The notes under the pieces were generated by a model. It saw only the letters and a list, made by a program, of their open reading frames with translations, ran no database searches and was not told the origin of the DNA. DNA of 64,000 bases from an uncultured Dehalococcoidia bacterium (GTDB lineage: Bacteria; Chloroflexota; Dehalococcoidia; SM23-28-2; RBG-16-64-32): positions 2,288-66,287 of the forward strand of contig CAZYOV010000002.1 of NCBI GenBank assembly GCA_964649215.1. The letters are read 5' to 3'. Of the stretch, positions 3,697 through 45,865 are shown in pieces (positions within the stretch are counted from its first letter, which is position 1; each line of letters starts with the position of its first letter). The translations under genes and the position numbers were made by a program.

Positions 3697-3735
3697 CCGT
3701 TTGACACCCGCCCCGCCCAGGCGCATAACCGCGGC
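3697..3735 (+). repeat. motif-1 copy A: promoter-like repeat TTGACA(3701-3706)-N17-CATAAC(3724-3729); a perfect TATAAT also at 3753-3758
   Basis: ccgtttgacacccgccccgcccaggcgcataaccgcggc, 48 bp upstream of the collagen-like CDS. Confidence 0.6.
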
Positions 3736-3782
3736 CTGGCCGACAGCTAGGGTATAATCGGCGGCACGGAAGGGGGTGCGTT

Positions 3783-5965: not shown

Positions 5966-6003
5966 CCGTTGACACCCTCCCAGCCCAGGCGCACAATCGC
6001 GGC
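5966..6003 (+). repeat. motif-1 copy B: TTGACA(5969-5974)-N17-CACAAT(5992-5997)
   Basis: ccgttgacaccctcccagcccaggcgcacaatcgcggc, about 180 bp upstream of the 6180 CDS. Confidence 0.6.
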
Positions 6004-6179
6004 ATGGGCCGCAGGAAGGGCGTAACCATGAGAGGCTGGGCTGCCCTTGGTAACGAACATTAGGTACAAAAATACTCAGACCTCGCCATGCGGCGTTCGA
6101 AGCTCCTTGGCTATGATTGACGATCAGGGCGAGATGAGGCGGATGATCGCGCAGTAGTAGCCGCTCCGGATATACTAGC

Positions 6180-7556
6180 GTGAACACTGACTACGAAACG
6201 CTGACGGATCGGGAGCTCGCCGTGGCGGCGCGAGGGGGCGACCAGCGGGGGCTGGCGACGCTGTACGACCGCTACTTCCTGGGCCTGTACGACTTCGCCA
6301 TCCGCACTCTGCGCGACACCGACGCGGCGGCGGACGTCGTCCGGAAAACGTTCACGGAGGCGTCGCGGCAACTGGGCGAGGGGACGGTCCCGGAGAGCGT
6401 GAAGGCGTGGCTCTATGGCACCGCCCTCAGAGAGGCCACCACTGGGACGCGGCAGACCCCACCGCAGGAGGGCGGGCGTCGGCAACAGGCCGGGGCGCTC
6501 CCCTCGTTCGTCGAGATCGATTCGGCCCGCGCGCCTGACCCTCAGGCGCTCCAACGAGACGGGGATCTGAGGGAGCTTGTCTGGCAGTCCGCGACCGAGC
6601 TCAGCCCCAGGGAGTACGCTCTCCTCGACCTTCGGCACCGGCGCGAGCTGACCACCGCCGAACTGGCGGCGGCCGTGGGGATCGGCGGAGACACCGCCGA
6701 TGCCACCATCTCCGCGGTCAGCGACACACTGGAGCAGGCGGTGGTGACGGCGCTGCTCGTGCGACGGGGACGCCGTGACTGCCCCGAGCTGGCCGCGCTC
6801 CTGGATCGGACCTCCACCCCGGAGGTGCGACAGGCCGTCCTGGCGCACGCGCAGGAGTGCCCGCGCTGCCAGAGGACCCCAGCCGACTACCCATCGGCGC
6901 TCCAGATCCTGGCCGCCTTCGCGGCGGTGCCGGCGGCAGCCGGCCTGAAGGAGGTGATCTGGCTGGCCGTAGTGAGTACCGGGGCGCCAGCAGAGCCCGT
7001 TGCCGCCGCTCCTGCCGGGCGCGGGAGGCCGCTGCTCATAGCACTGCTCGCCGGGCTTGTGGCCCTAGCGATCGCCGTGGCCCTGATCCTCCTGCTCGAC
7101 TCCGGCGGCGACGATGGGCTGGGCAACCCGGACGACATCCGAAGCACCAGCCACGGGATCGGTGAGCCGTCGAGCGAAACGGTCGTGAGCTTGGTGTGGT
7201 CTCGGCAGGAGGGGGTCCTCGCCTACTCCGTGTCGTGGAGCGGCGACCGGTTCGAGCTTCCCGACGAGGTCGGCGACCTTTCCGGCGACGCAACGGACGC
7301 GATGAGCCCTCAGCTCACGCCCGGGGAGTGGTACTTCCACCTGCGGACCCAGCACGAGGATGGGACATGGACCAACACGGTCCACGTCGGGCCGTTCCAG
7401 ATCGTGGCCGAGGCAACCCCTACGGCCGAGCCTACGGCCGAGCCGACGCCCTCGCCGAGCCCGCAGCCGACACCCTCGCCGACCCCGGAGCCGAGCCCGA
7501 GCCCCACGCCGGAACCCACGCCCTCGCCGACGCCTGAGCCCACACCCACACCCTGA
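6180..7556 (+). CDS. ECF-type sigma factor fused to anti-sigma (zf-HC2-like), TM helix, extracytoplasmic domain and Pro/Thr-rich tail
   Basis: Sigma-70 region 2 (GDQRGLATLYDRYFLGLYDFAIRTLRDTDAAADVV) and region 4 HTH (LSPREYALLDLRHRRELTTAELAAAV). Cys pairs CPELAALL..HAQECPRCQ. TM segment LLIALLAGLVALAIAVALILLL. C-terminal PT-repeat tail (EPTPSPSPQPTPSPTPEPSP..). GTG start. Confidence 0.6.
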   Translation: MNTDYETLTDRELAVAARGGDQRGLATLYDRYFLGLYDFAIRTLRDTDAAADVVRKTFTEASRQLGEGTVPESVKAWLYGTALREATTGTRQTPPQEGGRRQQAGALPSFVEIDSARAPDPQALQRDGDLRELVWQSATELSPREYALLDLRHRRELTTAELAAAVGIGGDTADATISAVSDTLEQAVVTALLVRRGRRDCPELAALLDRTSTPEVRQAVLAHAQECPRCQRTPADYPSALQILAAFAAVPAAAGLKEVIWLAVVSTGAPAEPVAAAPAGRGRPLLIALLAGLVALAIAVALILLLDSGGDDGLGNPDDIRSTSHGIGEPSSETVVSLVWSRQEGVLAYSVSWSGDRFELPDEVGDLSGDATDAMSPQLTPGEWYFHLRTQHEDGTWTNTVHVGPFQIVAEATPTAEPTAEPTPSPSPQPTPSPTPEPSPSPTPEPTPSPTPEPTPTP

Positions 7557-7709: not shown

Positions 7710-7750
7710 CCGTTGACACCCGCCCACCCCAAGCGCACAATCGCGGCGGC
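7710..7750 (+). repeat. motif-1 copy C: TTGACA(7713-7718)-N17-CACAAT(7736-7741)
   Basis: ccgttgacacccgcccaccccaagcgcacaatcgcggcggcgggcagtg. Confidence 0.6.
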
Positions 7751-8030
7751 GGGCAGTGAGGTCGCCCCTCCTCAATGGTACCCCCTTGGGCAGCGCGGCT
7801 TTGCTGTCCGCCCGTCACTTGGCTGCTGTAACATCCCATCGTCAGTCGGTGTTTTACATAGTGGCGGAGGCACCACCACCAGGTGATGGTGCAGCGTTCC
7901 TCAACTGACGCGGGGGGTACGTGGTGCCTCTTCCCAAAGACACCCGTGGCACGACGGTGCCAGGCAGCCGAGACACTCACCAAGACACACCCATATCGGA
8001 CTTGAGCCGCGCTCCTCGCTACCCTGAGCG

Positions 8031-8304: not shown

Positions 8305-8309
8305 CGCCG

Positions 8310-8345
8310 CCGTTTACACCCGCCCAGCTCAGGCGCACAGCCAAA
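8310..8345 (+). repeat. motif-1 degenerate copy (TTTACA..CACAGC) immediately 3' of the ZR gene
   Basis: cgtttacacccgcccagctcaggcgcacagcc. Confidence 0.4.
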
Positions 8346-8988
8346 AATAAACGGGCGCAGCGGCCCTGTCGCGAAAACCGCTGCGCCATCCCTCAGCCAT
8401 GGAGCCGAGAGGCATGATTATACCACTCGAAGCCTTTTTGCAAACCTCTCAAAATATAGGGCCTTTTTGCGGCCCCCGGAATGTCCGGGGTGAAGCCTAG
8501 TATCTGTATAGGGAAACGCAGATCGGAGACCCGTCCCTGAGAGGCCCCTACCCCCTCCCCGCCCTGGCCCGTCCCTAGATAGCGCCTCACGCCCCGCCCT
8601 TAGGCATGGGAGGGTAGGACTCAAACCCCCATCGTGGGTGCCGGGGGCTGAATACAATCCTGTATTGCGTTGTCGCTAGATAGAGAGTCCTATCTACCTG
8701 TCGTGGGTGACGGCCCAAAGAGACGGCCACGGGGGGATGGTGCCTATCTGGGCCGGTTGCCCGTTTGGGGCCTGCCCGTGACGGGAGGGTTAACCCCTTT
8801 TAGGGCCGTGTGTGTGGGCCGGTTAACCCTCTCCTGTACCTAGAGAGAGGGAGGGGATGGTGCAGCTCCCCACATCCTCCACACACATTCGGTGACTAAC
8901 GCAAGGCCATCCCCTCCCCATGGAGAGACGGGCCGTTGGCAAGTATCGTTGCTGGCAGAGGGATGCCGGTATTCTTTGTCCCTACAGG

Positions 8989-9498
8989 CTAGGAGCTGGG
9001 GCTGTCCCCATCGTCCCTAACAACCTCCCCCTCTACAGTGTCGGAGTCCTCCAGGTTAGGGTTCTTCTGAGAGATAAAGTTGATCTGGATGCTCTGGGCG
9101 TTGAGGTTGGCGTTACCCGGCTTCCTATCGATCTCCAAAAGCTTCAACACCTTGTCCATGATGATGCCGGTTGTCACGGCTAGGGTTTGACCCTTGATGT
9201 TACCCGCCGCTAGTTCCTCTTCCAGCAGGTCGCTCGACAGCAGGGCTAGGTCTACGGCGCGGTTCTGTACGACCTCTTTCCTTTCACGTTGAAGTTCAGC
9301 GAATCGTTCCGGCTCTATACTCTTGGTCCAGCGCCAGATCAGGTCACGGCTAGGGGGACGGTCGGGATAGCGCTTGACCATCACACGGTAGGCGTCAGCG
9401 CAGTTGCCAGTAGCAAGGGCTACCGCTACGGCCTCAGCCTTGACCTCTAGCGGATATTCGTACTCGCTGCGGGGGATTACTTCGCGGTTACCACGCAT
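8989..9498 (-). CDS. small HTH protein, phage terminase small-subunit-like
   Basis: 169 aa. KAEAVAVALATGNCADAYRVMVKRYPDRPPSRDLIWRW. Clear paralog of the ORF at 26919-27458. Confidence 0.5.
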   Translation of the reverse strand: MRGNREVIPRSEYEYPLEVKAEAVAVALATGNCADAYRVMVKRYPDRPPSRDLIWRWTKSIEPERFAELQRERKEVVQNRAVDLALLSSDLLEEELAAGNIKGQTLAVTTGIIMDKVLKLLEIDRKPGNANLNAQSIQINFISQKNPNLEDSDTVEGEVVRDDGDSPSS

Positions 9499-9814
9499 GT
9501 CCTCAGTATAGCAGGAGGGTTACACGGTTACGTGTGAAGGTGGCCGGCGCCGGGTAAATCTCTCCCATCACATCATGGGAACGGTTAGGGGAGGCCAGTG
9601 ACACCGAGACAGGGATAGTCCAGAGGCGTACAATACCCCCACTATGGAGCCGCGTATCCAGTACGCCCAGACCAAGGACGGGAAGGCCGCACGCTAAGCG
9701 CGGTTATGCTAAGGCCCTGCGTGCTAGAATTTCTTAGAGCCTCGCATGACCCCTAGATTGCCGGGGCAAGTGTCACCCCCGGACATCTTGTCGCCCACGT
9801 TCTAAGGATACCTA

Positions 9815-10606
9815 GTGACTGATCGCCTCGCAGGTGTTAATGCGAAAATCGCACGGGCCAATAAGCACATCGACGACTTGGATGGTCGGCGTCAATCCTT
9901 TTTCGTAGAAGACCCGTACAAAGTCGGAGCCAAGCGCGACAAAAAGACCCGAAGACCAATCTATTACATCACCAGCGTTCAAGATGTCCCGCCCGACATT
10001 GCGGCCGTAGCCGGAGACGTTATCCAAAACCTCCGTAGTGCCCTTGACCATTTGGCTTATCAGCTTGTTCTGGTCGGCACGGGATTGCCGGGGCCGTTCG
10101 ATCATGTCTATTTCCCAATCTCTGACTCGGCCTCGAAGTACGAAGCCGGAAAGGCGAGACAGATAAAGGGCATGAGGCAGGACGCCATAGACGCGATCGA
10201 CGCGATCAAGCCATACAAGGGAGGGAATGACATACTTTGGCGACTCCATAGCCTCAACAAAATCGACAAGCACCGACTCCTTCTCACCGCTGGGTCTACC
10301 CTTGAAAGCGTAGACATTGCGGGTGACATGACTCGGTTGCTGGAGAAGGCGATGGGCAAGCCGCTTGACATGGCTTTCCCCGAATTGGCCCTCCGACCTG
10401 CCAACAGGCTCTTCCCCCTGAAAGCAGGCGACCATCTCTTTATCGGTGCCCCTGATGACGAAATCGACAAGAACAAGAAGTTCACCTTTGAGGTATCGCT
10501 CAATGAGCCTGGGATTATCGAGGGTGAACCTGTGCTCAAAGTGGTCAAGGACATGCTTGATCTTATCGAGAACCTTACTCCCAACTTCCGACCGTTGCTC
10601 AAGTAA
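9815..10606 (+). CDS. hypothetical protein in low-GC patch; possible HEPN-like (Rx4H) abortive-infection-type protein
   Basis: 263 aa. GTG start with AAGGA 8 nt upstream. Local GC about 50% against about 65% background. Motif NLRSALDHLAYQL. An equally long antisense ORF (9812-10624) makes the strand call uncertain. Confidence 0.4.
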   Translation: MTDRLAGVNAKIARANKHIDDLDGRRQSFFVEDPYKVGAKRDKKTRRPIYYITSVQDVPPDIAAVAGDVIQNLRSALDHLAYQLVLVGTGLPGPFDHVYFPISDSASKYEAGKARQIKGMRQDAIDAIDAIKPYKGGNDILWRLHSLNKIDKHRLLLTAGSTLESVDIAGDMTRLLEKAMGKPLDMAFPELALRPANRLFPLKAGDHLFIGAPDDEIDKNKKFTFEVSLNEPGIIEGEPVLKVVKDMLDLIENLTPNFRPLLK

Positions 10607-10715
10607 GGCCCGATCACCTTTCATGGCGAACCTTGTACAGTAAAGGGGCAGTTGCCAGACTTCTTAGTGTTCCCTCTCCGGGTGCAGACGTGAGGTTTCC
10701 TGGTATCGCGGCGTG

Positions 10716-11921
10716 TCACCGTGTCAACAGCCCGTCTACGTTCGCCACAGGCTTGCCTACGTCCATGCGGGATTGTTCGGGGATTTTGTTCCTTTCATTC
10801 ACTCCAACCATAGGGATATGGTTGGATGAAAGGATGAATGTATAATATCCCCGTCGTAGTTTGTGAATCTGTCCCGTCTGTACGAGGCCGTTGACGGCTC
10901 GTCGCACGGTGGTTTCGGAGAAGGGGCTGGCCTCCACGATATCCTTAAATTGCGCCCCTTTGAGCCTAGACGCTCCCCACTGCTTGAGCCATTCCTGGGC
11001 CCTGATCACCTCGCCGACGCCCTTATCCCCGGCCACCTCCGCAACCTCGAACTGGTCCTCTCCTCCCTTGAGTAGGAACAGCTTCTCGTTGCCGCCTAGC
11101 CATCGGTTCTTTGCCATGTCCAGCTTCACCGTGTCGCTGTCCACCGTCTCTAGGTTGAGGACGATATCGGCGCTCGCAGGACGGGCTGAGGCACCGCGTG
11201 CCTTATACACCTTCTTGGCAATTTCGCCCTTGCCGATCTGCTGAACCTGAATCACTGTGGCGCTCGTGAGGGTGATCAGGTCGCGGATGGCCCGAGCCTG
11301 GGCGTTGGCCTCAGCGTTGTCCTCCTCTCGCTCGGTTCGGAAGGCGGCTGATATCGTGTCGATGATCACCACGTCAAAGCTGTGCTCCTTGACGACCAAG
11401 GCCAGCTTGTGGATATCCTCCATGAAGTCGATGGCCGGAATGAACGCCAACCCCTCGGGGCGGTCACTGGTAGAGATGACGTTGAGCTTGGTGCGGCGGA
11501 GGTTGTCAGGCGTCTCTAAGTCGAGGTAGAGCACGCGCAGGGGTCGGGGGAAGGGAATCCCCACGAACTCCTTCCCACGGGCCGCATGGACGGCCCAGTT
11601 GTAGAGGAGCGTTGTCTTGCCGACGCCGGAGTCGCCGCTTACGAGGACGTTGCTTCCGGGGAAGATGAATGGTCCCCACAGGCTTTCCGTCTCGCTCTCA
11701 TCTAAAGGTTCCAGGTCCTTCGCCCACAATAGGGAAAGTTCCTTTCTTTCAACATTATCCTTAGGGATGGATGGATGGAAGGAACGTTCGTCGGGCGCGC
11801 CGCCGTTGCGCCCGATGCCGTCCGCCCGTGGATGGGGTTCCGTGGTCGGACCCGCGTATTCGCACACGTGGCATCGGCCGTCGTCTGCCAGCAGGTGATT
11901 CCTCTCGCAAGTGGCGTTCAT
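10716..11921 (-). CDS. RepA-like AAA_25 ATPase (replicative-helicase-like) with N-terminal Cys motif and C-terminal wHTH
   Basis: Walker A VLVSGDSGVGKTTLL. Walker B/DExx region VVIIDTISAAF. 401 aa. Confidence 0.7.
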   Translation of the reverse strand: MNATCERNHLLADDGRCHVCEYAGPTTEPHPRADGIGRNGGAPDERSFHPSIPKDNVERKELSLLWAKDLEPLDESETESLWGPFIFPGSNVLVSGDSGVGKTTLLYNWAVHAARGKEFVGIPFPRPLRVLYLDLETPDNLRRTKLNVISTSDRPEGLAFIPAIDFMEDIHKLALVVKEHSFDVVIIDTISAAFRTEREEDNAEANAQARAIRDLITLTSATVIQVQQIGKGEIAKKVYKARGASARPASADIVLNLETVDSDTVKLDMAKNRWLGGNEKLFLLKGGEDQFEVAEVAGDKGVGEVIRAQEWLKQWGASRLKGAQFKDIVEASPFSETTVRRAVNGLVQTGQIHKLRRGYYTFILSSNHIPMVGVNERNKIPEQSRMDVGKPVANVDGLLTR

Positions 11922-12096
11922 GGCCTGTCCTTCCCCTCCCCCTGCGGAAGCGCTGGAGCTGCCCTGTTAACGAAGACGCGCCTGCAGTGCTGGCAGATGG
12001 TGTGCCGAGGAGACAACGGACAGCACGGGGAGTCGCAGGGGTAGCCGCAACTTGGGCACGGCTCGCGTGTCGGCTCAAGGAAGTCAGGGGGAGCTC

Positions 12097-12354
12097 TCAT
12101 CGCACCTCCCGCCGCCTCCTCTGACGTACTTTGGCGCTCTGCAGTGCCATCCTTGAGAAGTGAAGCTTCTTGGCCGCTTCCGCCCTCCGCTGACGCTCTG
12201 CTGGTGGTAGAGTACCGTCAGGGTCAACCTGTTCCTCGAATTTCGAGAGGAATCTTGCCCTCGCTGCCGCCGTATATTCTCTGGAATCGCGCTTGGCGGA
12301 TAGGGCCAGGCCCCCAATGCGGGCACGAAGCGTCGAGAGGGTTTTGCCACTCAC
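12097..12354 (-). CDS. small basic hypothetical protein
   Basis: 85-aa ORF between the ATPase and the next gene; basic, possible DNA-binding protein; weak support. Confidence 0.25.
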   Translation of the reverse strand: MSGKTLSTLRARIGGLALSAKRDSREYTAAARARFLSKFEEQVDPDGTLPPAERQRRAEAAKKLHFSRMALQSAKVRQRRRREVR

Positions 12355-12401
12355 AGACCGAAGTCTACGGTGTGCTAGGGTCCGACAATTAGCGTGGAAA
12401 T

Positions 12402-13217
12402 TTAGCGTTGACGGCGCTTGGAGCGTCGCCAGCGCTCCCTGTCACGTGCTTGGCGACAGAGGTCGCAGAGGCGGTTGCGATGGCGCTTGGGAACAAACGG
12501 GAGCAGCCTTGTGCAGTCGGGGCACCGGCTAGGAAGAGTAGCGCTGCGTAGATCGTCGGCGATCTCTTGATAGCAGAGCGCCCACATGCTAAAGCAGACG
12601 GTGGTGTGGACAGGTAGGAACTCGTAGTTGTCCGGCTCATCGGAGCCGGACTTGGGCTCTCCCGTCCAGCGGTTCGTCTCACTGAGATCATCTACTGGCG
12701 GCTGCTCGCTTTCAAACTTGGTCCATACAGCCTTCTCAATGTCCAGTTCCACAACATCGTCCAACAACCTCTGCGTTAGCGCCTCGGTATCCCATGAGCC
12801 CCACGACTCCATCTTGTCACCGAAATAACGCAATGCCGACACCTCGTTATCGAGAATCTCCAGCGCCCCGTCGCTCATCAAATAACCGCGATGCCCCATC
12901 CTCGCGCCAACGAACAGACCGAACCACTGGGCCCATTTCCACGTCTCTAGAAGCGTGGTGTCGAATCGGCTCACTCTGTTGAAAATCTCAAGATAGAAGC
13001 GCTCTGGAGTTGGCAAGTAGGCACGCCCAGCTAGCGCCGTGCCGGTGGGATCGATCAGGATGATGGCAACCGTGCCGCTGTCAATATTGACATACGGTGT
13101 GTCAACTGAGCCGGGGGCAAACAGCCCGTATTTCATTGCACTGGCCTTGATCACACCCTTGTCGAGGGCGGTATCACCCAACACTTGCTGGAAGACCAGA
13201 ACGTGGCGGCCACGCAA
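12402..13217 (-). CDS. hypothetical protein with C-terminal CxxC..CxxC zinc finger
   Basis: 271 aa; ..RCPDCTRLLPFVPKRHRNRLCDLCRQ; no recognisable catalytic motif. Confidence 0.45.
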   Translation of the reverse strand: MRGRHVLVFQQVLGDTALDKGVIKASAMKYGLFAPGSVDTPYVNIDSGTVAIILIDPTGTALAGRAYLPTPERFYLEIFNRVSRFDTTLLETWKWAQWFGLFVGARMGHRGYLMSDGALEILDNEVSALRYFGDKMESWGSWDTEALTQRLLDDVVELDIEKAVWTKFESEQPPVDDLSETNRWTGEPKSGSDEPDNYEFLPVHTTVCFSMWALCYQEIADDLRSATLPSRCPDCTRLLPFVPKRHRNRLCDLCRQARDRERWRRSKRRQR

Positions 13218-13276
13218 TATTCAGTGCTCCTAGGTGGCCTTGGCTGAGGGGCGCTCCCGACACATGAGGGGCTGGA

Positions 13277-14221
13277 TCACAGCCTGTCCCCCAACCGCAG
13301 CCGCTTGTGGGCGGCCAGCGCTCTCTCTTGCCCCGTGCTGGCGGCGTAGCGTAGAACCATGTCCCGCGACCGCCAGCCCATGAGCCTCATCAGGTCGGAC
13401 TCGGCGCCGCCGGCTGCCAGCCACGCGTGGGCAGCGCTGTGTCGCAGTATGTGTGGATGTATTCTGCCCAGCCCCGCCTGCTCGCCGCGGCGGCGGATCG
13501 CCAGGCGCAGCCCTTGGTCGGTAAGCGGCCCCCTACGCCCCAGCCACAAGGCCGCGGAGTGGGCGTCACGATGGGCGGCCCGGAGGCGGAGGTACTTGTC
13601 CAGCGCCCGCCCCGTCTTTGACCCTAGAGAGACGACGCGCCAGCGCCGACCCTTTCCTAGAACGCGAACGACGCCCTGATCGAGGTCTACGTCGTGCTGC
13701 TCCTCGTCGTCGGGACACCAGCGCAGGCCCAGGACTTCGCCGATGCGACAGCCAGTGTCGATCATCAGTCGGATGATGGCCATATCGCGACGGTCCTCAA
13801 ACCACTGGCCTTCGCAGGCCCGAAGCAGCTTCCGCAGCTCACCCTCGCCCAGGACGTCCGGCGCTTCCTCTGGGATCTTGGGTACCTGCATCCGCGCCAT
13901 TGGCGACTCCTTGATCTCGCCGTCCTCCACCAGGAATTTGAAGAACTGCTGAAGCGAGCGGTAGCGGTTTGCGGCGGTGGTGGCCTTGAATCGCGTCAAC
14001 AGGTCGGCGATGAACTCCTCGAGGTGCTCGCGGGTGATTGCCGACACGTCGCGGGGCATTCCCCGGTCGGCAAGGAAGACGTCGAGCGCCTTCACAGCCT
14101 CGGTGTAGACCTCCACCGTCCTGGGGGCGCGGTTGCGCGCCTGGAGATACCGCCGGAAGGGGCCGAGGTTGACTTGTATGCCGCTCTCCGCGACACTGTG
14201 TGCATGGGCGGCTTGGCGCAT
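13277..14221 (-). CDS. tyrosine recombinase/integrase (XerC/D-like)
   Basis: R..HxLRH..Y catalytic signature ([22 protein letters not shown]). N-terminal SAM-like domain. GGAGA SD before the ATG at 14221. Adjacent to tRNA-Gln. Confidence 0.8.
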
Positions 14222-14308: not shown

Positions 14309-14382
14309 TGCGGGATTGTGTAATGGTAGCACGGCTGATTCTGGATCAGTTAGTCTAGGTTCGAATCCTAGTCCCGCAGCCA
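14309..14382 (+). tRNA. tRNA-Gln (anticodon CTG)
   Basis: 74 nt with cloverleaf. Acceptor TGCGGGA/TCCCGCA. Anticodon stem GCTGA/TCAGT with loop TTCTGGA. T-arm CTAGG-TTCGAAT-CCTAG. Ends in CCA. Confidence 0.8.
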
Positions 14383-14387
14383 AGCGT

Positions 14388-14464
14388 GGCGCATTCGTCT
14401 AGTGGCCCAGGACACCGCCCTCTCAAGGCGGAGATCACGGGTTCGAATCCCGTATGCGCCACCA
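14388..14464 (+). tRNA. tRNA-Glu (anticodon CTC)
   Basis: Acceptor GGCGCAT/ATGCGCC. Anticodon stem CCGCC/GGCGG with loop CTCTCAA. T-arm ACGGG-TTCGAAT-CCCGT. CCA end. Very similar overall to canonical bacterial tRNA-Glu. Confidence 0.8.
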
Positions 14465-14481
14465 CATTTTCAATAGGGAAA

Positions 14482-14506
14482 CGCCCCCCGGAGGGGGCGT
14501 TTGTCG
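14482..14506 (+). terminator. rho-independent terminator hairpin after tRNA-Glu
   Basis: cgccccccggagggggcg followed by tttgtcgtcc. Confidence 0.55.
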
Positions 14507-14523
14507 TCCATTTGTCGTCCAAA
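14501..14523 (+). repeat. integrase arm-type tandem repeat ttgtcgtccatttgtcgtccaaa (attL side)
   Basis: 22 of 23 identical to 29349-29371; a related copy at 9787-9797. Confidence 0.55.
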
Positions 14524-14524
14524 C

Positions 14525-15670
14525 TCACGAGCCCGTCGCCGCCAGAACGCCGTCCAGCGCCGACGCCGCCTCCCGCTGCATGTCCGGCAGGACGTGGGAG
14601 TAGGTGTCTAGGGTGATACTCACCGTGGCGTGGCCCAACCGCTCGCTGACTATTTTCGGGTGGACGCCCGCCTGCAACATTAGGGTCGCGGCGGTGTGCC
14701 GCAGGTCATGCACCCTCAGCGGCCCCACGTCAGCCGCCTTGACGACGCCGTAGAACACGCGGCGAACAGTTGAGTCGTAGACGGGCCTCCCCAGCGCGTC
14801 GGCGAACACAAGACCGTTCTCCTCATAACCTGGCCCCACCTGCATACGCTGTTCCAGCTGCTCCCGGCGATGCTCCCTGAGAGCGGCCACCGTGTCGGGC
14901 GAGAGAGCGACGGGCCGCCGCGAGCGCTGCGTCTTCGGCTGGCTGAACACGATCCCCTGCCCCCTAGCGAACCGGGCCGTCCGCACGATCCTCAGCGTCC
15001 CCCCGTCTAGGTCGACATCCGACCACCGCAAGGCCAGCAGCTCGCCCGACCGCGCTCCGGTCTGTAATGCGAGGTAGAAAAAGGTGTAGTGCGGCGTGTC
15101 CGAAGCCGCCTCCAAGAACCGCTGCGCTCCCTCCGGCGAGAGGACGCGCATCTCCCTCCGCTGCGCCCTTGGGGCTGACACGGCGTCGGCAGGGTTTGCA
15201 GCCAGCAGTTGCCACTTCACCGCCCAGGACAGAGCCTCCCGCAAGATCGCGTGGTGCTCTTTGACCGTCTTGGCGCTTAGGGATTCGCCCCGCCCGTCGC
15301 GGCGTTGAAAGGACGAGTAAGCCGCCTGTATGTGGGCGGGCCGCAGGTCGCGCAGGCGAACCCGCCCCAGCGCCGGTGCCAGGTGGTGGCGGACGATGCC
15401 CTGATATCGTTGGAGGGTAGAGGCTGCGACCTGCTCGGTGGCATAATCCCGAAGCCAACGCTCCAAGAAGTCGCCGACCGTGATCTTATTGGGGGCGATG
15501 TCGATGCCGGTGTCCCGCTGGTGCAGCGCTTCGGAGAGGACGCGCTCGGCTTCCTTTTTCGTCCCCCTCACGGTAAGAAAGCGGCGCAGGCGTCGCCCCT
15601 GAGCGTCGCGCCCCAGGTCTATGGTGAGCCCCCAGCCATCTTTACCCCGTCTTCGGATGCTTCCGGCCAT
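14525..15670 (-). CDS. phage-type tyrosine integrase with N-terminal arm-binding domain
   Basis: 381 aa. HDLRHTAAT...LGHATVSITLDTYSH catalytic box. First gene next to the tRNA-Glu 3' end. Confidence 0.85.
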   Translation of the reverse strand: MAGSIRRRGKDGWGLTIDLGRDAQGRRLRRFLTVRGTKKEAERVLSEALHQRDTGIDIAPNKITVGDFLERWLRDYATEQVAASTLQRYQGIVRHHLAPALGRVRLRDLRPAHIQAAYSSFQRRDGRGESLSAKTVKEHHAILREALSWAVKWQLLAANPADAVSAPRAQRREMRVLSPEGAQRFLEAASDTPHYTFFYLALQTGARSGELLALRWSDVDLDGGTLRIVRTARFARGQGIVFSQPKTQRSRRPVALSPDTVAALREHRREQLEQRMQVGPGYEENGLVFADALGRPVYDSTVRRVFYGVVKAADVGPLRVHDLRHTAATLMLQAGVHPKIVSERLGHATVSITLDTYSHVLPDMQREAASALDGVLAATGS

Positions 15671-15822
15671 CGCCCTGCTCCTTTCGTCGCCTGCGAAACG
15701 CCTTTGCCTTACAAGCTGGACTGCAATACTTCTGAGAGTACGGTTGCAGAGGTTCGTACCTCTTGCCGCACACAGGACACTTAACTCTCATGCCGTAAGC
15801 GTAACGGCAGGCGTTACGATTG

Positions 15823-16053
15823 TCAAGCCTTTTCTTTGTTTAGCAGCGCCGGGGCGTCATCCCTGCCGCCCTCTGACGCACTGCACTGCTCTTCGATCCA
15901 CTGGTGCAACCGATGCCGGGGGAGGCGTATGATTCGGCCCAACCTGACATGCGGCAGCTCGCCGCGACGGATCAGTTCATACACGTGGTTAGGGTGGACG
16001 CGCAGCAGCTCGGCGGCTTCAGCGACGGTTAGCAAGGGGGCGCTATTGTCCAT
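15823..16053 (-). CDS. excisionase-family / AlpA-like HTH DNA-binding protein
   Basis: LLTVAEAAELLRVHPNHVYELIRRGELPHVRLGRIIRL; 76 aa, located just downstream of int. Confidence 0.6.
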   Translation of the reverse strand: MDNSAPLLTVAEAAELLRVHPNHVYELIRRGELPHVRLGRIIRLPRHRLHQWIEEQCSASEGGRDDAPALLNKEKA

Positions 16054-16502
16054 TTCCCTCCAGCCTTGGCTGATGGGCGGCGGGGAGGATGGGGCTCTCT
16101 TGCAGCTTGAGGTCGCCTACGGTGTCGCCTTCGCCGTCTTCGCCAAGCTCTCCCTTGACGATCTCGCAGATGCCCTCGCAGAGATGGAGAAGCTGTAGCT
16201 CGGCGCGGCTGAGATTGCGGGGCAAGTAGGGTGCCGCTCCGTGAAGGTTAAGGATACGGACAGCGGCCACGCGGATGTTTCTCAAGTCGTGCTGTCCGAG
16301 CAAGGGAAATCTCGCTTGTGCTACCCTAAACGTAGCCGTCGATTGCACGGCGTCCTCCAATATCTAGGCCCGCTCTCTGATTCGCGTCGGGGGCGGGTCT
16401 GGTGCTTTTCGTGAGCCCTCATAGCCGCCGAAGAGGGGAGGAACCACATGGATATGGCCCAGGGAAAGGAGAACCTGGAACCCCTTCGGCGACTGTGGCG
16501 GA

Positions 16503-18524
16503 TCACGAAGTCTCCCATGATCGGTCTAGCCTATGTTCGTCGCAGAATGGCTTGCCGTTAGGGGCGTAGTAGGTGGCCTCAGCCCCGCAGGTGAGGCAGG
16601 AATCGGGGCCGTCGTCAGGGCTCTCCATAGGCGGGGCTGACTCTTGGTGTTCCGTATCTGAGCCGTCTAAGGTGGGGTCGGTATTCTCTCCCCGCCTTAG
16701 GGCAGGGAGTTCCCACTTCCACTGTCCATCGGCCCCAAATCCAGACTTCACCGACCGCACGCCGAGCGCGTCCTTTGCCCCGCGAAGCGTTGCCTCTTTG
16801 ACCCCCGCCGCTGTCGCCGCCTTCCGTATTTCGGTCGGTGACACGGGGCCGCTAGAGAGCAAGTCTGTCAGAATCTCTTTGGCTTCGACTAGCGCGGTTC
16901 GCCCCTCGCCATCAGCCGGGGCCGCTAGTAGCTGGTGCGCCGTCAGATCGGACTTGCCCGCCCAGGTGAACCCCTGGCCGTCACTCCAGCGGTAAGTCAG
17001 CGTCTCAGCCGGTGCCGCCAGGTTGTTCTTTACAACGGCGAAATGGCGCAGCGTCGAATCGTCAGCGTCCTCGCCCACCAGCAAGACGCTACGGGGAGCT
17101 GCTGAGAAATCTATAGAGGCGAGAATCCGCTGGAAGGCGTTGCCCGCCAGCTTCTTGTTCAGGTGAATAATGCCCAGGACACTCACCTTAGTCTCTCCGG
17201 CCAGCCTTTGCAGGGGGGCCAGGACGCCGCGCACTTGGGCGGATACGTGGGTGTCCGTACCGCCGGTGAACGCTAGAACGGGGTCGATGATGATGAGCCG
17301 CGTCTCTGGGGTGAGGGCCTGTTCTAGCAACGGTAGGTGATCATGGAGATTAAAGGCTACCTCCCCCTCTGCCGTCCAGATCATCGTCAAGGCCGTAATC
17401 CGATTCACGTCGGCTCCGAGCGTGTCCAAGCGGGGACGAACAGTATCGTCTAGGTCGTCTTCGGCGGTGAGAAGTAGAACGTCCCCCTGCGGAGCGATCC
17501 CGCCGTCCGGCCAGGGGGAGCCGCGAGAAGTCCGAGCGGCGATGTCCAGGGACAGCATCGACTTCATTAACCCAGGGTCCCCGGCGATGATGGAGATTTT
17601 ACCCAGGGGAATACGCCCAGGCCAAAGCCACTGAACCTGACGGGGGGTTACGTCGCTCAGGCGCACCAGTACAGGGGCCTTCGGCGGGGCGTCCTCATTT
17701 TCGTGAACGCCGAACTGCGAGTCTGGAATATGAATGTTCCCGCCGGCGGGACGTTCTCTCTTGGGCTTGCTGGCAGGGTAGCGGGCGACACTGGCGGCGA
17801 TAGCCAGTACATCGCGGTTGGATAACGGGGGGTCGCAGCGGCCCGTGTTGGCGACCAGCAGGGCAGCAGCTATCTCAGCCTCCCCGAAGCCTCTGCGTCT
17901 CATCGTCCCCGCGAGGCTGGCGAGGGTACTGTTGCGCTCGCCGCTGGGGATGATCTCGCTAACCTCAGGGGCACGCTGCCCGTTCTGCATCAGCCTCTTG
18001 AACACGTCGGGCAGGGGGGCAGGCTTTAGATCACCAGGGGCGCACCCCACCTCCCATTCGTACCGACGCCCTGAGGCGTGCACGGAGGGCGGCGCTACGA
18101 TGTAGCCGCCCTTTGAGCGAACGTCTACGCCGGGCGCGATGCCCGCGCCGTTCCCGTAATCCTCATCGACGTGGTAGATAAGGTGACAGCCGCCGCCGCC
18201 GGTCAACGCGGTCACGGTATCGGGCAAGTCTCCCAGGTTGGCTACTGATTCGTCGCCGCCTGATCGGGGGTCAATGTCGATGGCGAGAAGGCCGTCGCCC
18301 ATGACTAACCCGATATTGGCCTGGGGCTGTTCGCCCCACCATTTCGTAATCGCCGCCACGTCAACCGTCGCGTCGCTCAGGCCATGCTCTGTCCTGGGAT
18401 GTTTGGCGGGGGAGCTACAGTCCCCTCGCTGACAGGAGCACTTGCCGTCAACGGCCCACTGTAGGGGGAAGACGGGCCGCCCCTGGGCCGCGTAGGAAAG
18501 GGCGGCGTCCAGCAGGGCGCTCAT
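16503..18524 (-). CDS. bifunctional primase-polymerase (Prim-Pol, PriCT) fused to RepA-like AAA_25 helicase ATPase
   Basis: Prim-Pol N-terminal domain (LLAIDIDPRSGG, GGGCHLIYHVD, SKGGYIVAPPSVH). ATPase segment KISIIAGDPGLMKS. The likely start is M at 18524, coupled by an ATGA overlap to the upstream small ORF. Confidence 0.75.
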   Translation of the reverse strand: MSALLDAALSYAAQGRPVFPLQWAVDGKCSCQRGDCSSPAKHPRTEHGLSDATVDVAAITKWWGEQPQANIGLVMGDGLLAIDIDPRSGGDESVANLGDLPDTVTALTGGGGCHLIYHVDEDYGNGAGIAPGVDVRSKGGYIVAPPSVHASGRRYEWEVGCAPGDLKPAPLPDVFKRLMQNGQRAPEVSEIIPSGERNSTLASLAGTMRRRGFGEAEIAAALLVANTGRCDPPLSNRDVLAIAASVARYPASKPKRERPAGGNIHIPDSQFGVHENEDAPPKAPVLVRLSDVTPRQVQWLWPGRIPLGKISIIAGDPGLMKSMLSLDIAARTSRGSPWPDGGIAPQGDVLLLTAEDDLDDTVRPRLDTLGADVNRITALTMIWTAEGEVAFNLHDHLPLLEQALTPETRLIIIDPVLAFTGGTDTHVSAQVRGVLAPLQRLAGETKVSVLGIIHLNKKLAGNAFQRILASIDFSAAPRSVLLVGEDADDSTLRHFAVVKNNLAAPAETLTYRWSDGQGFTWAGKSDLTAHQLLAAPADGEGRTALVEAKEILTDLLSSGPVSPTEIRKAATAAGVKEATLRGAKDALGVRSVKSGFGADGQWKWELPALRRGENTDPTLDGSDTEHQESAPPMESPDDGPDSCLTCGAEATYYAPNGKPFCDEHRLDRSWETS

Positions 18525-18739
18525 TGCATCAACCCAATTTCGAGCCGGGGGCACTCGGCTTCACGAAGCGCGGCTAGAAAATGATCTACGGCTTCGGGGA
18601 GCGCACGGCGGGCATCATCATCGCCGTAGACGGCCATCTCCGCGAGGCAGTCCAGCCAGGACGTGGCCTGTGTGGGCGTGCAGCAGGTCGGGGTGTGGCT
18701 AGGCCACCGAAAAGGTTGTGTGCTATGCTTGGAGTACAT
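18521..18739 (-). CDS. small hypothetical protein, translationally coupled to the primase gene
   Basis: 72-aa ORF whose stop overlaps the ATG of the prim-pol gene (ATGA). Confidence 0.35.
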   Translation of the reverse strand: MYSKHSTQPFRWPSHTPTCCTPTQATSWLDCLAEMAVYGDDDARRALPEAVDHFLAALREAECPRLEIGLMQ

Positions 18740-18796
18740 CGCGTTTCCTTTCGTCGGGCTACGCAGGCAAGCCGCCTTTCGGGGCGGCTTTGCTGT

Positions 18797-18979
18797 TTAC
18801 ACGGCTACTGATTCCCGTTCGTTCAGAATGCGCTCAACCTCGGATTCGGCGACGCGGTAGTGGCCGTTCGGCAACTTCTTCGCGTCGAGCTTGCCGTCAC
18901 GAATCCAATTCCACAGCGACCACCGAGTGAGACCTAGCTGCTGCTCAACCTCGATCAAGGGCAGCATCCGTTCGGGCAT
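18797..18979 (-). CDS. AlpA/excisionase-family HTH regulator
   Basis: 60 aa; LTRWSLWNWIRDGKLDAKKLPNGHYRV. Confidence 0.5.
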   Translation of the reverse strand: MPERMLPLIEVEQQLGLTRWSLWNWIRDGKLDAKKLPNGHYRVAESEVERILNERESVAV

Positions 18980-19091
18980 GGCCTTCTCCCTTCACACGAT
19001 CCATAACCTGAGTATCACGCGAGCAAGGGGAGTCTGAGAAGGAAGGGTTTTCCGAGTGGGGGTTGCCGCCCTTTAGATAGGGCGGCGGGGT

Positions 19092-19742
19092 CTAGTTCCT
19101 AGAGGGCGGCAACATTCGGGGCGGACTCTTTGCCGCCCCCACCAGGCCCCAGGCGCGAAGTTTATCGAGCCTGTATCGGAACGTCCTGTCAGCCATCCCA
19201 ACAAGGTCGGCGGCGGCATCGGCGCTTAACTGCCCACCACCTCCCTGACGCAAGTAGTGGACAGTGAGCGTGTCCAGGCTCTCATCCCAGTTCAGGAGAG
19301 AAAGGCGCGGCCTAAGCATCTGGGCTGCAAAGGCGACGTGAAGGGCGGCTTCCGCCTTCTGTAGCATTTCCCGCTCTGGGTCAGGAGTAGCTTCGAGAAG
19401 CGCAACGACTTCTGGCGTTGGCTCTACGGGAAACGGCTGCCCATCTTTGGCGAACGACTGACGGAGAACCTCACGGACAGCGGCTGAACTATCCTTGAAT
19501 TGATAGCTCGCGCCCTCTGGCGTTCCGGTCACATGAATGACCAACTCTTGCCGCCGCACGCAGGCAGGATCCCAATCATGGCGGTACGTCTCTCCTAGCA
19601 AGACAGACTGAAGGTGCTCCTCCATGCGGGGAGAGAAGTCCGAGTCTTCTGGAGCCGAGTACACGCGAAGCCCTTCCCTCAACTCAAGGAGCGCCTGCGC
19701 TCGATCCCTAACCAGGAGGCTCACGGGAATCCCGTGTATCAT
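19092..19742 (-). CDS. hypothetical regulator with C-terminal HTH
   Basis: 216 aa; C-terminal ..ADLVGMADRTFRYRLDKLRAWGLV; motif-1 copy D lies about 240 bp upstream in the correct orientation. Confidence 0.45.
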   Translation of the reverse strand: MIHGIPVSLLVRDRAQALLELREGLRVYSAPEDSDFSPRMEEHLQSVLLGETYRHDWDPACVRRQELVIHVTGTPEGASYQFKDSSAAVREVLRQSFAKDGQPFPVEPTPEVVALLEATPDPEREMLQKAEAALHVAFAAQMLRPRLSLLNWDESLDTLTVHYLRQGGGGQLSADAAADLVGMADRTFRYRLDKLRAWGLVGAAKSPPRMLPPSRN

Positions 19743-19985
19743 GCGTCCATGATATCGTCAATGGCGATGGATCGCAAGTAACTATACCAAGCGCCTACTC
19801 AGCTTAGCCCCTAGAAGCCAGTCAGAAGCCACCAGATGACCGAGAGACGCAGGCACCGCCCCAGCTCGTTGTATGGCTTGGCCGAACGCCACTCGCGGCC
19901 CACGGTACAATAGGAGACGCGGACGGCGAGCCTTCTGAGTTCCCAAGTCCTCCTAGCGATGGGGCTTGGCCCCTCAGACGCCCTG

Positions 19986-20026
19986 AGACGCGATTGTGCG
20001 CCTGGGGTGGGCGGCTGTCAACGGGG
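19986..20026 (-). repeat. motif-1 copy D (reverse orientation): TTGACA = rc of 20016-20021, CACAAT = rc of 19993-19998
   Basis: cgattgtgcgcctggggtgggcggctgtcaacgg. Confidence 0.6.
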
Positions 20027-20178
20027 CGTGTCGGGCTTAGCGTGTCACCCTCCAGGGGGGCTTGACAAACGATGGGGAAACGCTATCCTGTAATCCGTCA
20101 ACGAAATATAAAGCGACGGGCGGCGGTGGATGTCGTGGCCGAGATTCGGTCAAGAGGTAAAGGGAAGGGGGAGACGAG

Positions 20179-20598
20179 ATGATACGTCCGATCTTTGTTG
20201 TGGTGGGCCTAGCTGTCATTGCTGCATCTTTGATGGCCACCAACCATATTTCTCTCGTGCTTGATATCGACATCAAGCCGGGCAGCGACCCGAACTCGAT
20301 CAGGCCGCTCAATAATGGCCTCCTCCCGGTGGCCATTCTGGGCAGCGCCACTTTCGATGTCAACGACGTAGACGTGAGCACTCTGGCGTTCGGCCCCGAT
20401 GGCGCGGTGCCCGTTCACGACGAAGGGGGCCACTTGGAGGACGTGAACTCTGACGGCTTTACGGATCTGGTCTCTCACTATCGCATCCCGGAGACCGGCA
20501 TCGCGTTGGGCGATACAGAGGCCTGTGTCACCGGCGAGCTGCTCGACGCTACGCCCTTCGAAGCCTGCGACGACATCCGCACCGTGCCCGTGCCCTAG
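20179..20598 (+). CDS. small secreted protein with dockerin/EF-hand-like Ca-binding loop
   Basis: Signal peptide [34 protein letters not shown] resembles a dockerin repeat. GGAGA SD. Confidence 0.5.
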
Positions 20599-20630
20599 GC
20601 GAAGCTGGACTCCGGCGGCGACTCGCTGGT

Positions 20631-20672
20631 CGCCGAGATTGTGCGCCTGGGCCGGGCGGCTGTCGAAGGAGA
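20631..20672 (-). repeat. motif-1 copy E (reverse; -35 variant TCGACA)
   Basis: gagattgtgcgcctgggccgggcggctgtcgaagga, 33 bp after the stop of the 20179 gene. Confidence 0.5.
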
Positions 20673-20935
20673 CGCGAGGGTTCGGCTGGCAGCGGGGGCC
20701 CGCTCTCCACCGTGAGGCTGAGCTGGCGGGCCAAGTGTGGCTGGCCCTGGCCGCCGTGCTGGCGGGCGCGGCGCTCCTCTTCAAGCTGACCTAGGCGGAT
20801 CATGGTACGAAGGATCTCTCTCGTCTTCGGGACGGTGACCGGGCTGCTGCCCTGGCTGTTGGGCCTGGCAAGCTTTGCTCGTAGAGGCTACTATGAATCC
20901 ATGGAGGTCTTCGGGATGGGCACGGAGGGAGCGGC

Positions 20936-21313
20936 GTGACTTCGGCCAGGCTGCGTCGTATCGTGCTCGACCGGCCTATGCTAGCGGTCGGACTGGTCGC
21001 TGCTCTGACGGGGGCAGCGCTGGCCAGCGGGATCATGGCTTACGGCGCGATAGCGGACGGTACCAAGTACACAACGCTGTCCTGGGCGCTCATCGCCCCG
21101 GTCTGGGGTCTCCTGGCCCTGCTGTGGCTCCTCGTCCGTCGCTGGCCGCTGGCGGCGGCGGCTTCGATGGGCTGGCTGGCGATCTTCGCGGGTATCTACT
21201 ATGGCGATGTGTACGGCCAGTTTCCCGCCGCGCTCCTCTTCTTGCTGGGGACGGCGATAGTGTTCGTTCCCGACCGGGCGAAGGACGGCGGTACCCGCAC
21301 GATGCGAACGTAA
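20936..21313 (+). CDS. small integral membrane protein (about 4 TM helices)
   Basis: 125 aa; alternating hydrophobic stretches; GTG start with GGAGGGA upstream. Confidence 0.45.
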   Translation: MTSARLRRIVLDRPMLAVGLVAALTGAALASGIMAYGAIADGTKYTTLSWALIAPVWGLLALLWLLVRRWPLAAAASMGWLAIFAGIYYGDVYGQFPAALLFLLGTAIVFVPDRAKDGGTRTMRT

Positions 21314-21517
21314 CCGGCAAGCTACCTGTGGGGGCGTTGTCGGGCCGGAAGCCCTCGGCAGTGTGGTGGACGCCGCCCGGGAAGCGCCACCGCCTGTTGT
21401 TTTCAACACCAGCTCATTTGTGTGATCCGTAGGGAACGCGGATAGCGTCCCTGATAACCGCCTTGGGGGGGGGCTTCTGAGGTCACCCCTGGGCCACAAG
21501 GGCAGCGACCCAACTGC

Positions 21518-21558
21518 CGCCGCGATTGTGCGCCTGGGCTGGGCGGGTGTCAACGGGG
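21518..21558 (-). repeat. motif-1 copy F (reverse): tgtcaa 21548-21553, attgtg 21525-21530
   Basis: Immediately 3' of the ZR gene at 21562. Confidence 0.6.
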
Positions 21559-21561
21559 CCG

Positions 21562-21828
21562 CTAATCCCTCTCCGATTCGACGTGCTCCTGCATCGCGTT
21601 CGCGCCTGGCGAGTCGAAGTGCCGTCCAACGGTGTGCCCAGCGTACCACCACTCACGTGTAGACTTCAGTCTGCGCCCTTCGGGTCTGGCCTTGTCCAGT
21701 AGTCTATTGCAGCGTGGACAGATAGGCACTATCTCCCGCCGCCAGCGGTCGTTTGGCGCGTCCCGGTTGCGGGCAGTGACGGCCCACTGGCTGGGTGTGG
21801 GGGAACCGCAGAAGTGGCATGCGTGCAC
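21562..21828 (-). CDS. small zinc-ribbon protein (ZR family, copy 3)
   Basis: MHACHFCGSPTPSQWAVTARNRDAPNDRWRREIVPICPRCNRLLDKARPEGRRLKSTREWWYAGH; near-identical to the protein at 8031-8304. Confidence 0.6.
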   Translation of the reverse strand: MHACHFCGSPTPSQWAVTARNRDAPNDRWRREIVPICPRCNRLLDKARPEGRRLKSTREWWYAGHTVGRHFDSPGANAMQEHVESERD

Positions 21829-22084: not shown

Positions 22085-22132
22085 CTGTCCGCCACCGCGA
22101 TTGTGCGCCTGGGCGGGGCGGGTGTCAACGGG
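22085..22132 (-). repeat. motif-1 copy G (reverse): tgtcaa 22123-22128, attgtg 22100-22105
   Basis: Upstream of the ZR copy 3 leader. Confidence 0.6.
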
Positions 22133-45862: not shown

Positions 45863-45865
45863 GTG

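Follow-up and report, generated by a model that had tools for sequence, protein, structure and literature searches.

What is known so far of satellites as parasites of helper phages comes for the most part from Firmicutes, Proteobacteria, and a few actinophages. Phage packaging sites such as lambda cos (cosQ-cosN-cosB) and SPP1 pac (pacL-pacC-pacR) open the terminase operon with a composite region a few hundred bp long, in which a partly symmetric cleavage region is combined with repeats bound by the small terminase (TerS) and with bent or A-tract DNA. Satellites that carry a TerS of their own and satellites that mimic the pac or cos site of their helper both represent established strategies, the former being the third satellite strategy summarized for pac-type Staphylococcus aureus pathogenicity islands (SaPIs) and phage-inducible chromosomal islands (PICIs) (10.1101/2024.04.22.590561). 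Here, we analyzed a 64,000-nt stretch of DNA from an uncultured Dehalococcoidia bacterium (contig CAZYOV010000002.1; hereafter the window, with all coordinates given as positions within these 64 kb), in which a TerS-like gene followed by non-coding DNA with conserved motifs occurs twice, in 2 separate elements. We read the gene and its non-coding block, with slightly less than even confidence, as a packaging module, made up of a TerS and a pac/cos-type site, that belongs to a new family of phage satellites. An earlier annotation of the window (the original prediction) had proposed either a replication origin or a packaging site for this block; a pac/cos-type site fits better, and an origin fits less well.

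Both copies of the TerS-like gene lie on the minus strand, the left one encoding 169 aa (8989-9498) and the right one 179 aa (26919-27458), and the 2 proteins are homologous paralogs with 60% identity across 124 aa (E 2e-53). In the left protein, a helix-turn-helix (HTH) is followed by a helical hairpin and then by an acidic tail that is disordered. Its AlphaFold model (predicted local distance difference test, pLDDT, 75 overall; block means of 87-96 for residues 11-70 and 82-90 for residues 71-120) places helices at residues 17-30, 33-43, 51-61, 63-97, and 101-125, with the tail disordered from residue 129. The first 3 of these helices form a three-helix N-terminal HTH unit (residues 17-61, pLDDT 87-96), as expected of a TerS, and a long helical hairpin is predicted at residues 63-125. 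Weak matches to the DUF4817 HTH were obtained in 10 of 27 relatives, with HTH_Tnp_1 and HTH_23 matches also present among the relatives. A C-terminal strand is kept across satellite and phage versions of the protein (NxQxIQINFISQ in the window, NVQFNLVTRE in the phages) and would fit a tail that contacts the large terminase (TerL).

The protein family comprised 27 clusters at first and later 93 clusters at 90% identity, with no source providing a functional name. Direct searches of the protein against INPHARED phages and PLSDB plasmids gave no match, and GTDB genomes scanned with protein-derived patterns gave no relative. When the model was compared with the PDB by Foldseek, the small terminases of G20c and P74-26 took the top ranks (E about 1, TM-scores 0.26-0.33), and several of the top matches in BFVD were named 'Terminase small subunit', the best of them at E 0.06 (probability 0.98). 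In search of remote relatives, we scanned 1.84 billion representative proteins in full with HMMER and obtained 99 relatives, and a profile built from 70 of them was linked to the TerS-like family with an hhalign probability of 99.95%. The same profile reached PDB entry 2AO9 at E 3.6e-4 and the Sf6 gp1 small terminase at E about 0.1; 2AO9, from a Bacillus cereus prophage, has been described as a putative nonameric TerS (PMC7672466). Among the 70 relatives, 2 matched small-terminase families in PHROGs and 1 matched a 'transcriptional regulator'. Given this transitive profile link to a solved TerS, the fold matches, and the position of the gene ahead of terL in phages (described below), the protein is likely a small terminase, and the label 'terS-like' used in the original prediction is backed by the predicted architecture as well.

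The original prediction had described 8311-9500 and 25830-27460 as homologous segments that share about 500 bp of non-coding DNA. The genes are homologous and ordered short blocks are shared, but there is no continuous match of approximately 500 bp: BLASTN gave a single solid non-coding match (8754-8843 versus 26832-26922, 79% over 91 nt, E 1e-15) besides shorter islands, and the 2 copies are not collinear. The right copy contains insertions, namely, a 79-aa open reading frame (ORF) on the plus strand and 2 tandem small units. The ORF (26198-26437), present in the right copy only between M4 and the small units, has a signal-peptide-like N-terminus and its own terminator (26512-26532), with no Pfam or PHROG match. 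The left copy carries a spacer of approximately 145 nt at the stop codon (8845-8988, minus strand) that is absent from the right copy, is common to the close relative L004 at 90%, and contains a perfect 12-bp inverted repeat (8849-8860 and 8907-8918). The non-coding status of the block held, with at least 4 stops in all 6 frames of both copies and a longest open stretch of 82 codons, which rules out a coding region missed earlier.

The direct repeats that had been quoted for the block do exist (TCGTGGGTG at 8632 and 8701, GGGGATGGTGC at 8733 and 8853, and GGCCAGGTAG at 26635 and 26653), and those of the window copies occur in 2 copies only. We judged repeat significance against dinucleotide shuffles using exact 7-mer repeat statistics, and the shuffles reached the observed values in 57% (left) and 31% (right) of cases; the argument from iteron-like repeats therefore fails for the window. 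Further, 8345-8430 and 25870-26100 lie outside the repeat-rich block and belong instead to a separate small-RNA-like unit. The proposal that the block is the core of a family of elements fared better. We identified the gene together with non-coding DNA in more than 20 metagenomic or metagenome-assembled genome (MAG) loci with varied backbones, as well as in phage contigs of approximately 45 kb (relative loci that carry the gene, on metagenomic, MAG, or viral contigs, are labeled Lxxx). In every locus fetched, 300-1000 nt without called genes directly follow the TerS-like gene, and in satellite and phage loci alike, 2 conserved blocks, M1 and M4, adjoin the gene downstream in fixed order, placing a conserved site next to the putative terS.

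In gene-strand order, M1 comes first. The left M1 (8778-8843, minus strand) reads GGTTAACC-GGCCC-N-CCTAAAAGG followed by CCCTCCCGTCAC and is the best-conserved stretch between the window copies, and the right M1 (26856-26922, minus strand) overlaps the stop codon of the gene. The general pattern of M1, GGTTAAC..CCC..N..CTAAAAGG, is present in satellite and phage loci. A perfect 11-bp inverted repeat surrounds the left M1 and is not kept in the right copy, where none was found. The inverted repeats noted earlier in both copies were confirmed as a dyad with 7-bp arms and a 6-bp spacer, TAGATAG-N6-CTATCTA at 8677-8696, an operator-like palindrome with single CTATCT/AGATAG half-sites nearby, and CCTATCT-N6-AGATAGG at 26790-26809 in the right copy. 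This dyad is common to both window copies, L014, L015, and L016; in the left copy, its arms stand in the opposite order. The middle part of the block is variable, and significant direct-repeat arrays were found there in L011, L013, L015, and L018, including CTGTTAC x4 (L015) and TATGGAC x5 (L011), with GTTACAC or TGTCCCC elsewhere.

A further motif, M3 (CTTACC/CTTGAC-N7-TATAGTGC), contains a -10-like box and is present in some satellites and phages (L001, L003, L008, L011, L014, L017, L018, L019, L021, and L023, as CTTGAC/CTTACC-N7-TATA(A/G)T). The sole match in the window copies within 3 mismatches is at chance level (26127-26147, plus strand), and this M3-like match precedes the secreted-looking 79-aa ORF. 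M3 may represent an unusual class of promoter in these elements; its 7-nt hexamer spacing misfits sigma-70.

M4 is a signature of approximately 65 nt found across the family. The left M4 (8476-8541, minus strand) reads GGG-ACGGGTCT-CCGATCTGCG-TTTCCC-TATACAGATA-CTAGGCTTCACCCCGGACATTCCGG and agrees with the family consensus except at 4 of 24 positions, and the right M4 (26560-26632, minus strand) is diverged and reads GGGGATC-ACGGGTTC-CATGATGGCC-TCTCTGTATACAGT-CTAGG. In its family form, GGG-ACGGGTTC-CCGATCCGCG-yyTCTC is followed by an AT-rich palindrome of 6-10 bp and then by CTAGGCTTCACCCCAGACATTCCGG; the symmetry of the palindrome is kept and its sequence varies (CTGTATACAG, CTATATAG, GTTAAC, ATTAAT). 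We aligned M4 from 14 satellite and phage loci, and ACGGGT was invariant in all of them, including phages with a protein only 33% identical. Just after the left M4, within 8432-8476, lie 2 A-tract boxes GCCTTTTTGC on the plus strand (8432-8441 and 8461-8470), and the terminator scan placed a terminator-like hairpin at 8458-8476 (minus strand). Paired AAAAAGGCC boxes spaced 29-36 nt apart recur behind M4 in L008-L013. Looser M4 patterns searched in IMG/VR added mostly tRNA false positives. A role of M4 as the phage attachment site (attP) was rejected, M4 being intact within the integrated elements and the right attachment (att) core being the tRNA-Glu 3' end, and a 12-nt match between the right M4 and the T-arm of tRNA-Glu (GATCACGGGTTC) was judged incidental.

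Homologs of the TerS-like protein with 33% identity were identified in viral contigs of approximately 45 kb from metagenomes (L001-L003, L019, L021, L023, and L028). The phage gene order (L001, L021, and L023) runs from an endolysin gene and small minus-strand genes to the TerS-like gene, which is the first plus-strand gene, and continues with approximately 300 nt of non-coding DNA, 2-5 small ORFs, the TerL gene (phrog_2, Terminase_3), and the gene of a protein of approximately 600 aa behind TerL that is probably the portal. Methyltransferase and RusA genes are located upstream in L021 and L023, and the endolysin gene is located upstream in L001 and L021. The TerS-like gene lies 0.9-1.6 kb upstream of TerL in L001, L021, L023, and L024, that is, at the start of the packaging operon. 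The phage TerL is a distant relative, at approximately 25% identity, of the TerL of D6E and of Jersey- and Kagunavirus-type terminases. Phages of the D6E, Jersey, and Kagunavirus types package by a headful (pac) mechanism. Related viral contigs are of similar length and broken at different points, and this, together with the TerL kinship, weakly favors headful (pac) over cos packaging.

Several other observations concern the phage contigs. Only in phages (L001 at 6371-6517, L003, L021, L023, and L028), an ORF of approximately 48-60 aa overlaps the stop codon of the TerS-like gene; it appears to be conserved as amino acids (W.Q.LL...QG.Y....P..YDW..LW.L) and ends inside M1, with GTTAAC holding its stop codon in L001. 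After M4, inside the region of a small zinc-ribbon ORF, the phages have arrays of either TGTCCCCAC (L001 at approximately 6880-6950, L021) or GTTAC(A/G) (L003, L019). The same 2 types of repeat are present ahead of M3/M4 in different satellites, a hint that satellites and helpers may form matched pairs. The contig of L029 (IMGVR_UViG_3300043256_000152; 1-66 of the reverse complement) opens with a long poly-C run, behind which its sequence starts approximately 20 nt ahead of M4; this start may be either an assembly artefact or the trace of a physical DNA end. Similarly, in L005 and L020 the contig stops 70-75 nt beyond the point where M4 starts; the 3 contig ends near M4 are weak hints of DNA ends and could equally be mosaic junctions.

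The 2 window copies reside in small elements on either side of a tRNA-Gln/tRNA-Glu pair (14309-14464). The right element spans 15.1 kb (14442-29517), is integrated in the 3' end of tRNA-Glu, and is bordered by a 23-nt direct repeat of that 3' end (14442-14464 and 29495-29517), with housekeeping genes beyond 29.5 kb. It encodes a tyrosine integrase (14525-15670), a PrimPol-helicase (16503-18554, with Prim-Pol, PriCT_1, and AAA_25 domains), a Fic protein, and the TerS-like module. The left module, of approximately 6 kb (8342-14221), lies on the 5' side of tRNA-Gln and contains an integrase gene (13277-14221, minus strand), an AAA_25 helicase gene (10716-11921, minus strand), the TerS-like module, and the small unit, such that 2 different tyrosine integrase genes flank a single tRNA pair. 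Among the ORFs of both elements that we scanned against Pfam and PHROGs, we found no recognizable capsid, tail, or TerL gene; several ORFs matched nothing and might include novel structural genes. An integrase and att repeats in an element of less than 20 kb (right), replication genes in both elements, and no structural or TerL match are all features of satellites. The gene order of the left module recurs in L010 (integrase, followed further on by AAA_25 and the TerS-like gene), and L011 and L017 carry an integrase, a Xis-like gene, a Cro-like HTH gene, a gene of unknown function, and the TerS-like gene. When one genome of each GTDB species was scanned for exact patterns, the layout was present in one uncultured Chloroflexi MAG (L018), the sole match in the genome collection.

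From these sequences we infer TerS activity, a role in DNA packaging, and dependence on a helper. The N-terminal HTH of the TerS would bind DNA, its helical hairpin would oligomerize, and its C-terminal strand would contact the TerL of the helper phage. The approximately 450-560 bp downstream of the gene would act as double-stranded DNA and not as RNA, with M1, the CTATCT/AGATAG dyads, M4, and the 2 A-tract boxes serving as ordered recognition motifs that form a pac or cos region, where the terminase would assemble and make its first cut. M4, kept in satellites and phages alike, would have to be used by helper-encoded machinery, more variable parts of the block would set specificity, and both window elements would be satellite-like parasites of L001-type phages. 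A packaging function is favored because the site lies beside terS in all members, because conservation across the divide between satellites and phages is stronger for M4 than for the protein, because no co-oriented protein gene follows M4 in the window copies, and because the elements combine integrase and replication genes with a lack of recognizable structural genes; it is also favored by the fact that satellites with their own TerS and satellites that mimic pac or cos sites are both established.

A number of points weigh against this interpretation. On the side of the protein, direct searches of Pfam, PHROGs, and the PDB gave no match, all direct fold matches had E >0.05, and the link to TerS is indirect, being reached via an intermediate profile. 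In the phages, the gene is not immediately adjacent to terL, as 2-5 small ORFs and the overlapping 48-aa ORF lie in between. M4 sits there just before a ribosome-binding site, and in relatives with M3 the repeats abut M3 where a -35 box would lie, both of which look regulatory. The window copies lack any repeat array above chance. The protein of L004 is 98% identical to the left copy, yet M1 and the repeats differ, and the repeat types GTTACAC and TGTCCCCAC are common to particular satellites and particular phages whatever the protein clade; the variable motifs hence do not just follow the TerS-like protein. As for the elements, no att repeat of at least 8 nt was found for the left module, which may be a decayed element or may use an unrecognized site, and no helper prophage was present within the window.

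The regulatory look of M3 and M4 leads to the alternative that survives best, which we nevertheless regard as rather improbable, namely, that the HTH protein activates late-gene transcription much as RinA, ArpU, or Delta do. The block would then be its target, with binding sites, M3 as an activator-dependent promoter, and M4 as the conserved leader that opens the phage structural operon, and satellites would copy the arrangement to answer the late programme of the helper. Consistent with this, M3 has a -10-like box (TATAGTGC) without a proper -35, and repeats (GTGTCCCC or GTTACAC) end at the place of the -35 in L008, L011, L017, and L018; in L003, L019, L023, and L028, M4 is flanked by M3 on one side and by the ribosome-binding site of the following ORF on the other; and the left M4 is followed by its terminator-like hairpin. 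The HTH also matches transposase and regulator-type HTH families, and one distant relative matches the 'transcriptional regulator' PHROG, but the profile and fold links favor TerS more often than regulators. Further, M3 is absent from both window copies apart from its chance-level match, the spacing of TTGAC-N7-TATAGT misfits a sigma-70 promoter, and a plain promoter role becomes less likely because neither window copy has a co-oriented protein gene behind M4. The block could also combine packaging with a function as late promoter or leader; the pac region of SPP1 overlaps the promoters of its terminase operon.

We consider it improbable that the block is a replication origin, in which the HTH protein would be an accessory origin binder and the block an iteron plus AT-rich origin for the AAA_25 or PrimPol helicase. 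In L010, the TerS-like gene overlaps the AAA_25 helicase gene at the stop codon of the latter, and the resulting order of rep, gene, and non-coding DNA is that of pri-rep-ori modules; in the right element, by contrast, the PrimPol-helicase gene is 8 kb away, and L011 and L017 carry the module without a nearby replication gene. The significant direct-repeat arrays in the 4 relatives named above (L011, L013, L015, and L018) would suit an origin, but repeats in the window copies stay at chance level, with no array of at least 3 repeats beyond chance. A-tract, AT-richer DNA does lie behind M4, yet the composition profile, including the GC skew proposed earlier as a check, does not switch clearly in skew at this position. 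The phages carry the block within the packaging operon by terL, with the methyltransferase and RusA genes approximately 6-9 kb upstream of it.

We also searched the block for RNA structure, as tRNA-like or other non-coding RNA (ncRNA) structure had been raised in the original prediction, and found none by Rfam, ARAGORN, or RNAalifold. Rfam returned only 2 tRNAs and noise, both with gathering thresholds on the whole window and with E up to 10 on both block copies, and ARAGORN found no tRNA-like element in the block. RNAalifold on M4 from the 14 loci gave zero consensus pairs and no covariation on either strand, and subsets of 9 satellites and 7 phages gave weak pairs that were equal on both strands, which is the behavior of DNA palindromes. 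Conserved dyads, AT-rich symmetric cores, and A-tracts, as present here, are typical of double-stranded DNA recognized by proteins. That the block is a long structured ncRNA transcribed from the gene strand, as a 3' untranslated region or an independent transcript of approximately 500 nt, thus appears very improbable: such RNAs are classically found in prophage-like elements with large conserved non-coding regions, the fold of the gene strand is slightly better than that of shuffles (z -1.8 for the whole block, and -0.4 for the other strand), and a terminator-like hairpin closes the block, but no Rfam family was matched, the pairing in M4 is nil or strand-symmetric, the inverted repeat around the left M1 is not kept on the right, and the conserved features are those of double-stranded DNA.

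Next to the block, promoter and terminator scans identified a separate unit at 8342-8444 (minus strand) with a promoter, 2 hairpins, and a terminator, which is a candidate small-RNA gene independent of M1-M4. Its promoter (8444-8417) reads TTTGCA-16-TATAAT with a TG before the -10 and matches the consensus at 10 of 12 positions. Hairpin 1 is formed by CUCUCGGCU and GGCUGAGGG, and hairpin 2, formed by GGCGCAGCGG and CCGCUGCGCC, is followed by a U-run and constitutes an intrinsic terminator; the unit folds at -38.4 kcal/mol (z -3.3). Copies of the unit were recovered by nhmmer. The right copy of the module has 2 such units in tandem on the minus strand (25869-25991 and 26001-26101), and further copies were found in L012 (3028-3116), L013 (2606-2694), and L014 (2354-2447, inverted relative to the gene). 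The tips of the hairpins vary from 4 to approximately 35 nt in length, with the stem bases kept. Only 5 distinct copies are known; 96.8% of cells were paired versus 39-51% with the partners slid. No double compensatory change was observed, and 5 of 5 one-sided changes keep the pair; since all of them involve G-U pairs, the pairing holds only in the minus-strand RNA. The unit had no Rfam match and no conserved peptide.

A dispersed repeat of 35-60 nt (CCGTTGACACCCGCCC..CCCAGGCGCACAATCGCGGC), which reads TTGACA-17-CACAAT with a conserved spacer, was found on the plus strand at 3698-3746, 5966-6014, 7710-7758, 8305-8343, and 45817-45865 and on the minus strand, with 4 copies inside the right element, at 19969-20030, 20614-20675, 21501-21562, and 22076-22137. 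Copies are also present in L009-L017, and the repeat could represent either a strong promoter, with an operator, used throughout the lineage or a repetitive extragenic palindromic (REP)-like element. At 7419-7552, 12-nt tandem repeats encode a Pro/Thr/Ser/Glu-rich linker at the C-terminus of a 458-aa ORF (6180-7556), which has weak matches to sigma-70 region 2 and to the anti-sigma domain zf-HC2.

Taken further, the data could describe the first phage-satellite family in Chloroflexota, a speculative and on balance doubtful extension. In it, at least 3 backbones (integrase plus AAA_25 helicase, integrase plus PrimPol, and integrase plus a Cro-like HTH only) would be built on one module of TerS and composite packaging site, M4 would be the signal shared with helpers, locus-specific repeats (GTTACAC or TGTCCCCAC) would set helper specificity, and the small-RNA-like units would be satellite regulators. 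A full-text literature search found no paper focused on phage satellites in Chloroflexota. If the proposed packaging function is true, satellite-helper parasitism would extend to a poorly studied phylum, the unannotated family of 93 protein clusters would gain a function, and M4 would provide a short DNA signature for finding satellites and their phages in metagenomes. The locus also calls for caution, as apparent 'iterons' in GC-rich DNA can be due to chance; the constrained motif here is a non-repeated block.

Compared with phage packaging sites, the block resembles lambda cos and SPP1 pac in being a composite site with a symmetric part and A-tract DNA at the start of a terminase operon. It has no sequence similarity to either, and the sites of lambda and SPP1 lie upstream of terS or overlap its 5' end, whereas the block lies downstream of the putative terS and upstream of terL. 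The TerS-like protein shares with the TerS of 2AO9, Sf6 gp1, G20c, and P74-26 an N-terminal HTH, a helical core, a flexible C-terminus, and a length of 140-180 aa; the direct family profile finds none of them, and the TM-scores remain at 0.26-0.33.

Among satellites, P4, cos-type SaPIs, and PLE (with 14-bp pac mimicry) offer a parallel for M4, a short sequence nearly unchanged between small elements and phages with proteins 33% identical; mimicry of the helper packaging site is an established principle (10.1101/2024.04.22.590561), and conservation of M4 past the divergence of the protein is expected if helper-encoded machinery must recognize it. Unlike those satellites, the elements described here also keep a TerS-like gene, which would amount to a mixed strategy. 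Like pac-type SaPIs and PICIs, they are small and integrative, encode an integrase and replication functions without a recognizable TerL or capsid gene, and have a putative TerS homolog of their own beside a candidate packaging signal of their own, which would redirect the TerL of the helper. They differ in that no sequence kinship with SaPI proteins was found and no ppi- or cpm-like genes were recognized, that the host appears to belong to Chloroflexota, and that the proposed site is a multi-block region of approximately 500 bp downstream of terS. Overall, both elements are plausibly satellite-type elements with a TerS and a packaging site of their own.

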